Source: Rickettsiales bacterium (lineage in GTDB: Bacteria > Pseudomonadota > Alphaproteobacteria > Rickettsiales > UBA1997). From it: a DNA stretch of 64,000 nucleotides. The stretch's first letter is position 1, and each line of letters begins with the position of its first letter. Location: positions 189 through 64,188 of the forward strand of contig JAGAUJ010000011.1 of the NCBI GenBank assembly GCA_017620845.1, read 5' to 3'. The notes below the pieces were generated by a model. The model ran no database searches. It saw only the letters and a program-made list of their open reading frames with translations, and was not told where the DNA came from. The translations under genes and the position numbers were made by a program. Below are positions 18,116-24,113 of this stretch, piece after piece.

Positions 18116-19234
18116 TTATAGTTCTATCTTTTTTATCAAGAAACAATACATTAATAAAAACAGAAACAACAAAAAGCCCCAAGTGGCCAGTAAGAAATTA
18201 ATTTTATTTGAAGCCCCAAGTTCAAACAATATATTCTGTGATACAAACAAAGCAACACCTAAGCATATGGTTTTAAAAATCATTAAAAAATAGTTTGCTA
18301 CTCTTTGGTTGCTATTTGAAAATAATACACCTATAAATACCATCAATACATATAAAAATGGAGTTAATAATAAATTATGTTTTTTTACAATAAATTTATG
18401 TGTATCAAAACCAAGAGCATCAAATTCTTTAATGAGTTTATTTAAAGAATAAAGCGGTATTAAATCAATGTCTTCATATTTATTTTGTATTTGTTTTTTC
18501 ATAAAATCTTGTGAAATATTTGTTTTCAATACAATTTTGTCTTTAAATTCTACTCTTTTATTTTGTTCAAAAATGTTTATGTTATTTAAAATAAAATAAT
18601 CTTTTATTAATTTCATACTCTCAACATTATATCTATGTTTATATTCGTTGTTTTTATCATTAATTATTATAATAATATCTTTAAATAACAATTCATTTAT
18701 ATATACCCTTTTTGCCCGCACTATAAATTCGTTATGTGTATCTGGGTCAATTTGCTTAAACCAAATACCATCTGTTGATTCTATAAAATATTTATCTTCT
18801 TTTTGTGAATATTTATTTTCAATTATTTGTGATTGTTTAACAAGATTTGAAAAAATAAAATTTAAGAAAAATATGACAAATAAACCAATAGTAAAAGCGC
18901 ATATACTATAAATTTTTAATACTTTCCAAGGTGAAAAATTATTAATATATAAAATAGTTAATTCACTTCTTGAAGATATTTTTATTATTGTAAAAATGAC
19001 CGCTAAAAGTATAATAAATTGCAAAAAACTTTCTATCATATTTGGTATTCTAAATATGATAATTTTTATTGCATCCATTGGTTGTATTGAATATCTTTGT
19101 ATTTTTGGGAAAAATTCCATAAAATCTATAATAAATACTAATATTGATATACTTAATATAATTAACAAAAATATTTTAATAAACTCTTTTAATAAATAAA
19201 ATGTAATTCTTTTTGTTGGAAAATACTTAAACAT
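18116..19234 (-). CDS. lptG: LPS export permease LptG (YjgP/YjgQ family)
   Basis: 372 aa with six-TM YjgP/YjgQ topology and a periplasmic insert. It overlaps the upstream paralogue by 8 nt. Confidence 0.7.
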   Translation of the reverse strand: MFKYFPTKRITFYLLKEFIKIFLLIILSISILVFIIDFMEFFPKIQRYSIQPMDAIKIIIFRIPNMIESFLQFIILLAVIFTIIKISSRSELTILYINNFSPWKVLKIYSICAFTIGLFVIFFLNFIFSNLVKQSQIIENKYSQKEDKYFIESTDGIWFKQIDPDTHNEFIVRAKRVYINELLFKDIIIIINDKNNEYKHRYNVESMKLIKDYFILNNINIFEQNKRVEFKDKIVLKTNISQDFMKKQIQNKYEDIDLIPLYSLNKLIKEFDALGFDTHKFIVKKHNLLLTPFLYVLMVFIGVLFSNSNQRVANYFLMIFKTICLGVALFVSQNILFELGASNKINFLLATWGFLLFLFLLMYCFLIKKIEL

Positions 19235-20303
19235 TTTTTAATTTAATGTTATTAATAAATTTATTTTGTATATAATTAAATATTGTGTAATACAGCGGAC
19301 TAAATAATAGCAGACAACTTATGTATATGTAAATGTTATTTTTTTGTGATGCTTTAATAAAAAATAAATATAAGGCAAAATTTGTTAAACATAAAGTGTA
19401 GGCCCTTATCATACTTTTATTGTCATCATTTCTTGAAAAACTTGTATTTAATATTAAAAGACATGCTAATATTGATAATGTTAATGATAATATTGGAGTA
19501 AGTATTCTATTGGCAATTTCTGCTACAACCTTACTATCTGTATGTTTTATTTTATACAATTCCTTTAAGGACATTAGATCAAAATCAATATTCTTATTTT
19601 TGTTTGTGTTGTAATATTCCGAAATATCAAGTGTGTATTTGTCAAAATATATTGTTTTTAAAGTATTGTTATTATTAAACTCTTGTAAATTACCATTGGT
19701 TAAAACTATATGTGTATTAATTATTTTTCCTTGTTGAGCATAAATAATTCTGTCTGGATTTTCTTTGTCCGTTGATTTTATATATAAAAATATTGAATTT
19801 AAGATGTTATTTTTATCTTCTTTGGCATATATAGTTATATTTTGAAAAGTATTAAAATTTGTATTGTTTAATAATACTTTTACTGCATCATTTTTCATTG
19901 AATCCTTAATATTTTCAAACTTTATATTACTTAATACTAAAAAATGTAATGTTATACTATACGAAATTATTAATATAAATATTGACATCATTAGTATTGG
20001 TGTTATTAAATGCATTGTTTTTAATCCAGAGTTTTGGAAAATTATTAATTCATTGTTTTTAATTAATTTGTTGTATAAAAATATTGTGGACACAAAAGCA
20101 CTTACTGGTATTGTTAACATCAGTAAGTTTGGTAAAATATTTAATATAATTGTAATAAAATTTTTAATATTTAGTCCGTATTCAGTTATGTAATATATAT
20201 ATCTAATTATTCTTGTTATCCATATAATAGATGTTAGTATAAATAACATTAAAATAAAATATTTTAGTAAATTTTTTAACAAATATCTTATATATATTTT
20301 CAA
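19227..20303 (-). CDS. lptF: LPS export permease LptF (YjgP/YjgQ family)
   Basis: 358 aa with the MKIYIRYLLKNLL... N-terminus typical of the YjgP/YjgQ family. It pairs with lptG. Confidence 0.7.
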   Translation of the reverse strand: MKIYIRYLLKNLLKYFILMLFILTSIIWITRIIRYIYYITEYGLNIKNFITIILNILPNLLMLTIPVSAFVSTIFLYNKLIKNNELIIFQNSGLKTMHLITPILMMSIFILIISYSITLHFLVLSNIKFENIKDSMKNDAVKVLLNNTNFNTFQNITIYAKEDKNNILNSIFLYIKSTDKENPDRIIYAQQGKIINTHIVLTNGNLQEFNNNNTLKTIYFDKYTLDISEYYNTNKNKNIDFDLMSLKELYKIKHTDSKVVAEIANRILTPILSLTLSILACLLILNTSFSRNDDNKSMIRAYTLCLTNFALYLFFIKASQKNNIYIYISCLLLFSPLYYTIFNYIQNKFINNIKLKNV

Positions 20304-20375
20304 TTAAATCTTGTTTTTTTTATTTTGTTAATTATACTAAATTATAAATTTTTTAAGTAAATAAAAAAATAGAAA

Positions 20376-21164
20376 ATGAATATAAAAAACTCAGTGCATT
20401 TACAGGATTTTCCAAATATAGAAAATTTTAAACCAGATAATGAATTATTGGATGTAATGGATAAAGTTAGAGCGATATGCAGTTGTGCTCTTTATGTTAG
20501 AGATAAACATAATTTAAGGGTTAGATTACCATTAAATAAGATGATCGTTATAAGTCCAGATTCTTCTGATATAAGTAATTTTGTTGATATTATAGCAGAT
20601 GAAATTAATGTAAAAAATATTGAATTCAATGATAATATTGAAGAATTTGGTGAGAAAAAATTGGTTTTAAATTTCCAGAAAATAGGTAAGAAAGTTGGTG
20701 CGAAAATGCCAAATGTAATGAAATTGGCTAATAGTGGTAAATGGGAAATTAAAGATGATTTATTGATTATTGATGAATTTAAACTTGCAAATGATGAATA
20801 CTCTATAAAGTTGGAAACTAAAAAAGAAAATGTTTTTGCTGTTGATGGATATGATATTCTAATTATGCTTGATTTAAATATAACTGAAGAATTGGAACAA
20901 GAGGGCACAGCAAGAGATTTAGTAAGATTAATACAACAATTTAGAAAAGATGTAAAATTGGATATAAGTGATAAAATTAGTTTAGTTATAAAAACAAATT
21001 ATGACTTTTTAAAGGACTCAATTAATAATTTTAAAGAATATATACAAGAACAAACTTTATCGGTTGATTTAATGATTACAAAAGATGAATTGAATACAGA
21101 TTTTTCTTTTTGTGAAGAAATGAGTAATAATATTGTTCAAGTTGGGTTTTCAGTAATAAAATAG
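20376..21164 (+). CDS. ileS: Stand-alone ORF corresponding only to the C-terminal ~260 aa of a type-2 isoleucyl-tRNA synthetase
   Basis: SVHLQDFP, VRLPLNK, IADEINVKNIEF and GTARDLVRLIQQFRKDVKLDISDKISL match the IleRS type-2 C-terminal tail. No catalytic domain lies upstream, where divergent lptF starts at 20303. Confidence 0.65.
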   Translation: MNIKNSVHLQDFPNIENFKPDNELLDVMDKVRAICSCALYVRDKHNLRVRLPLNKMIVISPDSSDISNFVDIIADEINVKNIEFNDNIEEFGEKKLVLNFQKIGKKVGAKMPNVMKLANSGKWEIKDDLLIIDEFKLANDEYSIKLETKKENVFAVDGYDILIMLDLNITEELEQEGTARDLVRLIQQFRKDVKLDISDKISLVIKTNYDFLKDSINNFKEYIQEQTLSVDLMITKDELNTDFSFCEEMSNNIVQVGFSVIK

Positions 21165-21171
21165 GATAGAT

Positions 21172-22353
21172 ATGGATATTAAAAAAAATATTTTATATGT
21201 AGTTCCAACAATGAATAGTGGTGGTGTTGAGGTTGGTATATTGGAGCTGGCAAAGAAAAATTTTGAAGAAGGGAACAAAATTAATATGTTTTTGTTGAGT
21301 TTTGGTGGAAAAATGATTAGTAGATTAGTTAGTTATGGAGTAAAATGTTTTAATGTAAATGTTAAAAGCAAAAACCCTATAACTATAATCAAAAATATAA
21401 AAAAAATTAAGCAAATAATACAAGAAAATGATATAAATATAGTTCAAGCAGAGTCAAGAGCGCCGGCTTGGAGTTGTTATTTTGCTTGTAAAAAATTAAA
21501 TATTCCAATGATTACAACTGTTCATGGTTTATATGATAGCACAAATTTTTTGAAAAGACTTTATAATTCTTCTATATTTAGAGGAAATCCAATAATAACT
21601 GTTTCAAATTTTGCAAAAGATTATTCAATAAAGTATTATAAAAAATATATATATAAAAAACAGTTTAGAAAAGATGTTGAAGTTGTATATAGGGCAATTG
21701 ATACTGATGTTTATAATGAAGATAATGTTTCTGTGACAAGGGTTTTAGAATTACAAAAAAAATTGAGATTGCCAGATGATAAAGTAATTATAACATTGCC
21801 AGCAAGATTTGCTAAACAAAAGGGGCAGGATTATTTTTTGAGAGTTTTAAAATTTATAAAAAATACAAATTATTTTTGTGTTATTATTGGTGATGATAAG
21901 AAAAAACCAAAATATGTGAAATATATTGAAAAGTTGATATATAAATACAATTTACAAAAAAATGTTGGTATATATGGCAATATAAGTGATATGCCTGCTT
22001 TGTATAAGTTATCAAATGTTGTTGTATCATCAAGTATAAAGCCGGAGTCTTTTGGAAGAATTGCTATTGAGGCTCAGGCTATGAAGAGAATTTTTATTGG
22101 CACCGCAATTGGTGGAACATTGGAAACGGTTAATGATGGAGTAACTGGATTTTTAGTGCCAGAAAACAATGCTAAATTATTTGCTAAAATATTAGATGAA
22201 GTATTGGAATTAAGTGTTGAGAAAAAAGATAAAATAACTAACAATGGAAGAAAATATGTTATTGATAATTTTTCTATTGATAGTATGTATAATTCTTTAA
22301 TTAATATTTATAATAAAGTGTTGGAATCTGATGATTTTAGGTGTTGGAATTGA
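21172..22353 (+). CDS. Glycosyltransferase family 4 (GT-B, RfaG-like)
   Basis: 393 aa. It has NSGGVEVGILELAK at the N-terminus and the C-terminal EX7E-type motif PESFGRIAIEAQAMKRIFIGTAIGGTLETV.DGVTGFLV. Confidence 0.8.
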   Translation: MDIKKNILYVVPTMNSGGVEVGILELAKKNFEEGNKINMFLLSFGGKMISRLVSYGVKCFNVNVKSKNPITIIKNIKKIKQIIQENDINIVQAESRAPAWSCYFACKKLNIPMITTVHGLYDSTNFLKRLYNSSIFRGNPIITVSNFAKDYSIKYYKKYIYKKQFRKDVEVVYRAIDTDVYNEDNVSVTRVLELQKKLRLPDDKVIITLPARFAKQKGQDYFLRVLKFIKNTNYFCVIIGDDKKKPKYVKYIEKLIYKYNLQKNVGIYGNISDMPALYKLSNVVVSSSIKPESFGRIAIEAQAMKRIFIGTAIGGTLETVNDGVTGFLVPENNAKLFAKILDEVLELSVEKKDKITNNGRKYVIDNFSIDSMYNSLINIYNKVLESDDFRCWN

Positions 22354-22744
22354 TTTACTTGATGTAAATAGAATTGAAAAATTGTTTGGTAAATTTGATA
22401 GTAATAGATTTGCTGAAAAGATTTTGTCCAAACGGGAAATGGAACTTTTTAGTAATATTGGTGATATTAGTAAAAAAATTAATTTTATAGCAAAAAGATT
22501 TTCATCAAAAGAGTCTGTTTTAAAAGCAATAGGGCTTGGACTTGGAAGGGGAATTGGGTTAACTGATATATCAGTTTTAAATGATATATTAGGAAAACCG
22601 GAAATTTCATTTAATGAATCTTCCATGAGATTTTTAGAAAATTTTTATAATATTGATTATAAAAATATAGATTTTAAGATGTCTGTGACTGATGAAAATA
22701 ATTTAGTTAATACTATAGTAATTATATCAAAAAGAAGATGTTAA
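22331..22744 (+). CDS. acpS: Holo-[acyl-carrier-protein] synthase
   Basis: 137 aa with MILGVGIDLLDVNRIEKL...RFAEKILSKRE and ...KESVLKAIG motifs. It overlaps the upstream gene end. Confidence 0.85.
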   Translation: MILGVGIDLLDVNRIEKLFGKFDSNRFAEKILSKREMELFSNIGDISKKINFIAKRFSSKESVLKAIGLGLGRGIGLTDISVLNDILGKPEISFNESSMRFLENFYNIDYKNIDFKMSVTDENNLVNTIVIISKRRC

Positions 22745-23460
22745 ATAGGATTAATAAGTTTGGTGAAGTAAATAGTTATGATGTGTTTAAAAATATAGCA
22801 TTTTTCGCTATGATTGTGGATCATATTGGATATTATTTTTTGCCACAAATATTTTTATTTAGGGTAATTGGGCGAATATCTATGGTGATTTTTGCTGTGT
22901 TATATGGTTATAGTTTTAGTAAAAGAAACAATAATATTTTACTTTATGGAATACTTACGGCCGTGTTTGTGCAGTTTTTTGTTGAGCATGATTTTTTGCC
23001 ATTAAATGTTCTTTTTGCTTTTTATATATCTTCATTTTTTATAAATATATTTGAATATGTATATAACAAGTATTATTCAATTTTTTGTTTGTTTTTAGTA
23101 ATGTTTATTCCAGCGGCTTTTATTTCTAATGTTTTTGTTGAATATGGTATATCTATGTTATTTTTGCTGTTGTGTGGTAAAATTTTTAAAAAAGAGAACA
23201 AAACAAGAAAGGACGTAATAACAAGTATATTAATTTTTGTTATATATGCTTTATATCAAACACTTAATTTTGGCTTTAATTTATTTGAATTTTTATTTTT
23301 GATGTTATTGCTTACTATTGTATATTTATATTTATTTAATTTAAAAATACAAAAAGTAGATTTTAATAATAAAATTATGTTGTTTGTGTCAAGATATTCA
23401 TTAGAATTATATTTTATGCATTTATTAATTTTTTCAATTATGGCAAAATGCTTACATTAG
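22738..23460 (+). CDS. TraX-like polytopic membrane protein (putative acyltransferase family)
   Basis: 240 aa and multi-TM. The N-terminal FKNIAFFAMIVDHIGYYFLP resembles the TraX-family signature. It overlaps both neighbouring genes. Confidence 0.45.
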   Translation: MLNRINKFGEVNSYDVFKNIAFFAMIVDHIGYYFLPQIFLFRVIGRISMVIFAVLYGYSFSKRNNNILLYGILTAVFVQFFVEHDFLPLNVLFAFYISSFFINIFEYVYNKYYSIFCLFLVMFIPAAFISNVFVEYGISMLFLLLCGKIFKKENKTRKDVITSILIFVIYALYQTLNFGFNLFEFLFLMLLLTIVYLYLFNLKIQKVDFNNKIMLFVSRYSLELYFMHLLIFSIMAKCLH

Positions 23461-24113
23461 ATAATAAAAAAAATATTAGAAGTTTTGGAAGAATAAATGG
23501 AAGAGGAATTACAGAAGAAACAAAAAATATTTTAAAAAATAAATTAGAACAATATAAATTTGTTTTGGAAGATTTCAAAAAAGATAATATTAATCATTTT
23601 GAAATAGGTTTTGGTTATGGTGAAAGTATTGTTGAAAGAGCAAAAAATAATCCAAATATAAAATATATTGCTTGTGAAACTTATACAAAAGGTGTATTGA
23701 ATTTGATTAATTTGATAGAAGTAAATAAAATAAACAATATACAAATTTTTAATGGTGATGCAAGACTGTTGTTAGAAACATTGCCAGATAATAGTTTAGA
23801 TATGGTTTTTGTGTTGTTTCCGGATCCTTGGCCAAAGAAAAAACAGCAAAAAAGAAGAATAATTAATGATGATTTTTTGATTTTGTTGTCTCAAAAAATT
23901 AAATTTGATGGAAAGTTGTTTTTTGCGAGTGATATTGAAAATTATGTTGAGTGGACTATTGAAATGGTTGAGAATAATGGATTTTTTGTAAAGATGTTTG
24001 ATAATGAAAGTATGAAGATTGAACCAAATTGGTGGGTTCAAACAAAGTATCAAGAAAAAGCGATAAGAGAGGGTAGGGAGTCTTGTTTTTTGGAGTGGAA
24101 AAAGTGTAATTAA
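23448..24113 (+). CDS. trmB: tRNA (guanine-N7)-methyltransferase
   Basis: 221 aa with EIGFGYGE (the SAM-binding motif) and FPDPWPKKKQQKRRI motifs. Confidence 0.9.
   Translation: MLTLDNKKNIRSFGRINGRGITEETKNILKNKLEQYKFVLEDFKKDNINHFEIGFGYGESIVERAKNNPNIKYIACETYTKGVLNLINLIEVNKINNIQIFNGDARLLLETLPDNSLDMVFVLFPDPWPKKKQQKRRIINDDFLILLSQKIKFDGKLFFASDIENYVEWTIEMVENNGFFVKMFDNESMKIEPNWWVQTKYQEKAIREGRESCFLEWKKCN

Follow-up and report, generated by a model that had tools for sequence, protein, structure and literature searches.

A free-standing C-terminal part of type-2 isoleucyl-tRNA synthetase in Rickettsiales, the probable small subunit of a two-gene enzyme

Isoleucyl-tRNA synthetase (IleRS) is regarded as an enzyme that has to be a single chain. 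Shiba and Schimmel reportedly found in 1992 that the E. coli IleRS, when cut at permissive sites, reassembles non-covalently into an active enzyme; those fragments are engineered and of type 1, whereas the split that we describe here in Rickettsiales is natural, fixed and of type 2. The split synthetase as a kind is already known from LeuRS and AlaRS. The LeuRS of Aquifex aeolicus is an alpha-beta heterodimer (cited in PMC3643597), a class Ia synthetase made from two genes whose products must assemble, and it resembles the split IleRS in having two genes and a cut in a variable surface element. It differs from the split IleRS in that its cut lies in the leucine-specific domain of the catalytic core and not in the anticodon-binding bundle, and in that the small subunit of IleRS is purely a tRNA-recognition module, with a cut that is fixed in whole families and arose repeatedly. 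The AlaRS of Nanoarchaeum equitans, both halves of which are needed for full activity, is likewise a split synthetase in a reduced-genome organism, but it is a class II, archaeal enzyme with a different cut point (PMC11392972). The nearest fused enzyme is the IleRS2 of Priestia megaterium (PmIleRS2; PDB 8C8U/8C8V), whose tRNA complex is described in PMC13752280 (Modrusan et al., bioRxiv 10.64898/2026.02.03.703510), from which we take the domain names ARD1, ARD2, INS and ARD3. It has the same domain order as the split pair (HUP, CP1 editing, ARD1, ARD2+INS, ARD3), whereas in the split pair a break within ARD1, between the equivalents of residues 766 and 769, divides the chain over two unlinked genes. 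In its parts the pair is a normal type-2 IleRS that lacks the covalent link. In the literature searched, we found no description of a natural split IleRS or of a split ileS in Rickettsiales, and the word "split" in the paper on the IleRS C-terminus is used only in its phylogenetic sense (PMC13752280).

The window, by which we mean the whole stretch of 64,000 nucleotides that was analysed, carries on its plus strand a free-standing frame of 262 aa (20376..21164, stop included), here called ileS-C. The frame starts with ATG, ends with TAG, has the N-terminus MNIKN-SVHLQDFP and contains both IADEINVKNIEF and GTARDLVRLIQQFRKDVKLDISDKISL. It is not a chance product, since at the local composition of ~23% G+C about 9% of random codons are stops, which by our own arithmetic gives an open frame of 262 codons a chance of ~1e-11. 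The original prediction, made from the letters of the window, recognised in it the C-terminal quarter of a type-2 IleRS beginning at SVHLQDFP, and the comparisons agree with this. Residues 71-248 match Pfam DUF5915 (PF19302; E 1.6e-30, 106.6 bits for a cut-off of 27), a domain for which our literature search found no paper using the name "DUF5915". Residues 4-55 correspond to the tail of Pfam Anticodon_1 (profile positions 96-146 of 148, a sub-threshold 15.4 bits). The whole falls on positions 764-999 of 1024 of the NCBIfam MupA model, which describes type-2 IleRS, and aligns to residues 769-1007 of PmIleRS2 (PDB 8c8u, 1032 aa). The AF2 model of the chain folded alone has a mean pLDDT of 87.5, which is low only at residues 1-20 and is followed by a helix at 22-44; its best fold matches found by Foldseek are the C-terminal region of IleRS2 (8c9d, 8c8w, 8c8v and 8c8u, E 1e-19 to 1e-17), and it also matches the yeast IleRS-tRNA complex (8wnd_A, TMq 0.73). 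Family profiles (DUF5915 and the Anticodon_1 tail), fold and pocket residues thus all place ileS-C in the C-terminal region of type-2 IleRS, and the frame is made of the last ARD1 helix, ARD2 with INS, and ARD3.

Residues 1-55 (20376..20540, plus strand) begin with a short new stretch, MNIKN, continue with the SVHLQDFP motif and include the last long ARD1 helix; they are presumed to be the element that docks onto the body of the enzyme. The DUF5915 part (residues 71-248; 20586..21119, plus strand) is ARD2 with its INS subdomain followed by ARD3, as delimited by PF19302 and by the PmIleRS2 alignment, which also equates F100, in ARD2 with INS, with F865 of PmIleRS2. The codons of Q187, R190 and K191 (20934..20948, plus strand) align with Q961, R964 and K965 of PmIleRS2, which form the pocket of the wobble base 34, and L195 aligns with L969, the fourth residue of this pocket.

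The rest of the enzyme lies elsewhere in the genome, a 1.02-Mb assembly of 29 contigs that is 88% complete. Four class-Ia bodies are recognised there by PF00133, namely IleRS on contig C13, ValRS on C2, LeuRS on C23 and MetRS on C20. The IleRS body, ileS-N, is a frame of 831 aa outside the window (C13, 2966-5458, minus strand), which scores 863 bits against TIGR00392, occupies positions 7-759 of the MupA model and ends ...APFTAEYIWRGLNFGNEN-stop, with 2.9 kb of the contig beyond the stop. The Anticodon_1 profile is shared out between the two genes, positions 1-88 being in ileS-N and 96-146 in ileS-C. The enzyme is not a single chain, as the body stops 6 residues after the ARD1 helix and ileS-C has its own ATG. 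The body aligns to residues 11-766 of PmIleRS2 and the window frame to residues 769-1007, and on this alignment the two frames read as exact complements, covering the whole enzyme without overlap or gap, as a two-gene synthetase should. Their summed length (831 + 262 = 1093 aa) compares with ~1050-1130 aa in most fused relatives. The assembly holds a single DUF5915 locus, which is ileS-C, and a search for a second IleRS body by PF00133 across this 88%-complete assembly found none; the layout is the same in relatives with a completeness of 96-99%. Among the explanations put forward in the original prediction was a split ileS with its N-terminal part encoded elsewhere, and it is this one that the genome bears out, as a copy cut just before SVHL was found and no full-length copy is present in the assembly, the break point on the type-2 enzyme being mapped between PmIleRS2 residues 766 and 769.

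Some features of C13 and C23 deserve mention in their own right. Beyond the stop of ileS-N lies a convergent 266-aa ORF which is lgt-like by eye, and upstream of ileS-N are two small ORFs (L023:4622-5443, minus strand, C13) whose translations, judged by eye, resemble a peptidase of the NlpC/P60 type and a tail protein of a phage or gene-transfer agent. The LeuRS frame on C23 (L003:1468-3648, 955 aa) has a weak ASCH match (PF04266, E 3.8e-4) at residues 245-348, before the editing domain.

The functional residues are distributed over both pieces. The body carries HYGH for HIGH, KLSKR for KMSKS, and TTTPWT and GTGIVH in the editing site, and in its ARD1 it retains the counterparts of PmIleRS2 N647 and F651; across the N-parts, HIGH, KMSKS, the editing TTTPWT and GxxH and the equivalents of PmIleRS2 N647 and F651 are kept wherever the segment was recovered. 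In ileS-N, Asn stands at the equivalent of S713. The split pair shares with fused PmIleRS2 the catalytic, editing and anticodon-reading residues, except that the equivalent of R721, the position that reads bases 35/36, is Lys, as it also is in 7 of 35 fused relatives. The equivalents of Q961, R964 and K965 are present in 16/16 split and 35/35 fused Rickettsiales IleRS and are thus invariant in all 51. In fused PmIleRS2, the R964A substitution results in a ~1000-fold loss of aminoacylation (PMC13752280). Because of this loss and because the wobble-base pocket is on ileS-C, the body alone is predicted to be a very poor tRNA-Ile ligase.

The surroundings of ileS-C are those that the original prediction described. 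The divergent neighbours are lptG and lptF (18116..20303, minus strand; Pfam LptF_LptG, E 3e-44 and 7.6e-50), and lptF is separated from ileS-C by an A+T-rich spacer of 72 nt (20304..20375); the start signals of the ileS-C operon must lie in it. A scan of 20150-21300 for consensus promoters and terminators, which says little at 23% G+C, found no signal in the spacer and none anywhere that exceeded the shuffles; no Shine-Dalgarno signal was recognised in the 72-nt spacer before ileS-C, and Rfam and tRNA scans of the window gave no matches. Packed behind ileS-C on the plus strand (21172..24113, Pfam assignments) are a GT4 glycosyltransferase, acpS, a TraX-like acyltransferase and trmB, the first of them 7 nt behind ileS-C and the others overlapping in turn by 23, 7 and 13 nt; this is the tight operon that had been announced. 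The gene order downstream of ileS-C is common to L020, L021 and related genera. When synteny was compared in relatives, the layout of lptG-lptF divergent from ileS-C-GT4-acpS(-traX-trmB) was found to be kept in the genus of the window and in two or three neighbouring genera, with g1, g11 and g6 among the genera that have it; it is absent from the more distant genera of the family (f1) and from the family f23, which keep the gene itself. The sister family f4 has a fused ileS with lptF immediately upstream of it and in the same orientation, so it was apparently the body that moved and the C-part that remained close to the ancestral locus, which would need more than one rearrangement. A single inversion turning the f4 layout into that of the window was considered and ruled out, since lptG, and not ileS-N, follows lptF in the window.

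The locus is authentic, and both pieces are maintained. In two independent studies, contigs of 42.8 kb run across 19700-21632 without a gap and with 5-6 differences, which disposes of a misjoin at ~20.3 kb. The stretch 19700-21700 was found in runs from 12 studies, mostly ruminant gut metagenomes by label; it is almost whole (share 0.79-1.00) in bovine, sheep, goat and other gut runs, in one terrestrial run and in two coded organisms, which suggests ruminant guts as the habitat of the organism. Inside the ileS-C frame lie four metatranscriptome contigs of 151 nt that match it exactly and cover parts of it (two runs of one study; depth 2, DNA carry-over possible), a weak hint of its transcription. 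In the family of the window, the C-part is a free frame of 262-356 aa in 37/37 genomes with a match, the window's own included, while two further genomes of the family had no C-part match. Of the N-parts searched for in 24 relatives, all whose end was found stop at query positions 823-830, and always on another contig. In one relative (G162), a single 2.1-Mb contig bears both genes, at a distance of 1.3 Mb from each other. A single fused frame, mostly of ~1050-1130 aa, is present in most other families of the order. In public data, free-standing homologues (144-459 aa) number at least 340 and are named "DUF5915 domain-containing protein [Rickettsiales bacterium]" by NCBI. The C-part has dN/dS ratios (NG86) of 0.16-0.37 and the N-part has ratios of 0.085-0.12, values that are probably overestimates since dS, near 1, is saturated, and purifying selection acts on both pieces across species. 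Region by region (core, ARD1, SVHL and helix, ARD2+INS, ARD3), the mean pairwise identity among split enzymes hardly differs from that among fused ones, and 16 of the 35 invariant columns among 36 free C-parts fall within residues 6-53, which are the ARD1-bundle segment in fused enzymes. As a separate observation, the N-part reaches 1040-1110 aa in some genera of the family (L100 in G020, L102 in G008, and also G017, G022 and G024), with an insertion of ~170-280 aa near residues 410-480 in the numbering of ileS-N.

The cut recurs outside the family. Free C-parts are present as well in f23, in 3/10 sampled genomes of f17 and in one genome each of f34 and f38. When 16 split and 35 fused enzymes are aligned, the cuts all map to a single loop, between the ...APLxPFxxExIWxGL helix and SVHLxDFP; in fused enzymes this loop measures from a few to several dozen residues, and the cut site is a surface loop of variable length that tolerates insertions. 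In a maximum-likelihood IleRS tree (736 columns, junction columns excluded), f1 and f23 form one split clade, sister to the fused f4, with an SH-aLRT of 86 that is not decisive. The remaining split rows fall among fused kin, 6 state changes are needed, at least 5 of which are forced by well-supported branches, and the AU test rejects a single clade of all split rows (delta lnL 447, p ~1e-48, for a group defined after inspection of the tree). To judge from these trees, the same loop has been cut at least five times independently. A tree of the C-part only also brings f1 and f23 together (83) with f4 as sister (92); it is congruent with the N+C tree, and the two pieces have therefore co-diverged. 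The cut in the lineage of the window predates the common ancestor of the two families, and its inheritance is deep and vertical.

Several relatives show further variations. In two genomes of f23, G224 (L056, L048, L037) and G190 (L064, L059, L039), the IleRS appears to be in three unlinked pieces, the first of ~280 aa with the HIGH half and the start of the editing domain, the second of ~555-600 aa and the third a C-part of ~260 aa; the extra cut is inside the editing domain after TTTPWT, at about residues 300-320 in the numbering of ileS-N, in frames bounded by stops and not by contig ends. In G057 (f34), ileS is split in situ, ileS-N being followed by a 141-aa membrane-like ORF without a Pfam family (L103:6637-7062) and then by ileS-C, the trio being joined by two TAATG stop/start overlaps precisely at the same junction loop; this cut is recent, since its congener G088 has a fused ileS frame of 1101 aa. 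In G107 (f34; L111), ileS is fused at the junction loop and two overlapping frames meet near residue 483 in the numbering of ileS-N, which points to a further cut or else to a frameshift or an error of assembly. Two fused enzymes, L083 (G212, f20) and L080 (G053, f30), have in-frame inserts of ~30 residues in or near the junction loop (e.g. ...VIPWLDHGIQKEKGLDPVVKPRGD...), which may be akin to the peptides encoded by Rickettsia palindromic elements. An apparent adjacent split in Gracilibacteria (L022, read with table 11) was rejected, the frame being fused under code 25, where TGA is Gly at the junction.

Taken together, we consider it very probable that ileS-C is the small (beta-like) subunit of a two-gene, non-covalent type-2 IleRS whose large subunit is the 831-aa body. 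The two pieces are complementary, conserved, under purifying selection and in possession of their functional residues, and the assembly has no other copy. In the model we propose, the large subunit would provide the synthetic site with HIGH and KMSKS, the CP1 editing site and the first ~60% of ARD1, reading bases 35 and 36, and the small subunit would provide the last ARD1 helix, ARD2 with INS for the D-loop contact, and ARD3 with the Gln-Arg-Lys pocket of the wobble base 34. The two chains would form a physical, non-covalent assembly in which the small subunit completes the ARD1 bundle of the large one with its SVHL segment and helix 22-44. The completed bundle would rebuild the normal anticodon cleft, and efficient charging of tRNA-Ile would be achieved by the complex only, the activity depending on both chains.

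Would the two chains need to form a stable heterodimer? The C-part could instead be a loose trans-acting factor, a free tRNA-Ile anticodon-binding protein that hands the tRNA to the body or joins it transiently on the tRNA. The poor order of residues 1-20 when the chain is modelled alone and the position of the two genes, unlinked and in unrelated operons, are in line with this, and weakened C-terminal D-loop contacts raise kcat in fused PmIleRS2 (PMC13752280), so that a looser attachment may be tolerable or favoured. However, the helix that ends the ARD1 bundle is part of ileS-C, no stretch of the free C-parts is more invariant than the first 53 residues, as expected of a packed interface, and the conservation profile equals that of the fused enzymes, so that we regard a loose factor as quite improbable. 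An accessory protein of the Trbp111/Arc1p-like kind is a poor description of ileS-C, given that the sole IleRS body is devoid of ARD2/ARD3 and that there is a single DUF5915 locus. The same lack of ARD2/ARD3 in the N-part, with no other copy in the assembly, bears on the recruited stand-alone tRNA-binding domain of the original prediction, in which the C-part would have taken a new role, with the envelope and lipid genes of its operon or with trmB, in a cell whose IleRS works without it. The operon with GT4, acpS, the TraX-like gene and trmB is indeed kept in several genera, but the gene is retained where this context is lost, in distant f1 genera and in f23, and the residues of the wobble-base pocket are invariant, which makes recruitment very improbable.

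Split inteins are known in other split genes, and the two chains might be rejoined covalently in this way after translation, or by joining of the mRNAs. The pieces, though, leave no room for intein halves because they add no extra length compared with fused enzymes, the N-part ending 6 residues past the conserved helix and the C-part starting 5 residues before SVHL; a Pfam search of both pieces for intein or Hint families gave no match, and we give covalent rejoining almost no credence. Finally, the 29 contigs and 88% completeness of the assembly might evoke the leftover of a broken gene, the fragment retained after rearrangement that had been suggested for this locus, or a misjoin. This is refuted by the presence of the same locus in independent assemblies from other studies and in several genera, by intact frames in 37 family genomes, the window's own included, by dN/dS well below 1 and by the single contig of G162 that bears both genes; the view that the frame is maintained rather than a fresh relic was correct.

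In conclusion, the two-gene IleRS, very probably a heterodimer, is of interest to synthetase biochemists and for the annotation of metagenome-assembled genomes (MAGs). It offers a system for studying how anticodon reading by ARD3 reaches the distant active site, and a natural test of the proposal that remodelling of the IleRS C-terminus tunes the rate of aminoacylation (PMC13752280). The C-parts are at present filed in public databases under the name of their DUF5915 domain, and their identification provides a correction for annotation, completeness and pseudogene calls in Rickettsiales MAGs. Could the fission be adaptive and not neutral, a detachable anticodon subunit loosening the grip on tRNA-Ile, speeding product release or tuning IleRS capacity through a separately regulated subunit? 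We hold this to be rather unlikely; if true, it would explain the five or more independent cuts at one loop and the three-piece enzyme in one family. The repeated cut at one loop is, for the Rickettsiales, a clean case of parallel gene fission.
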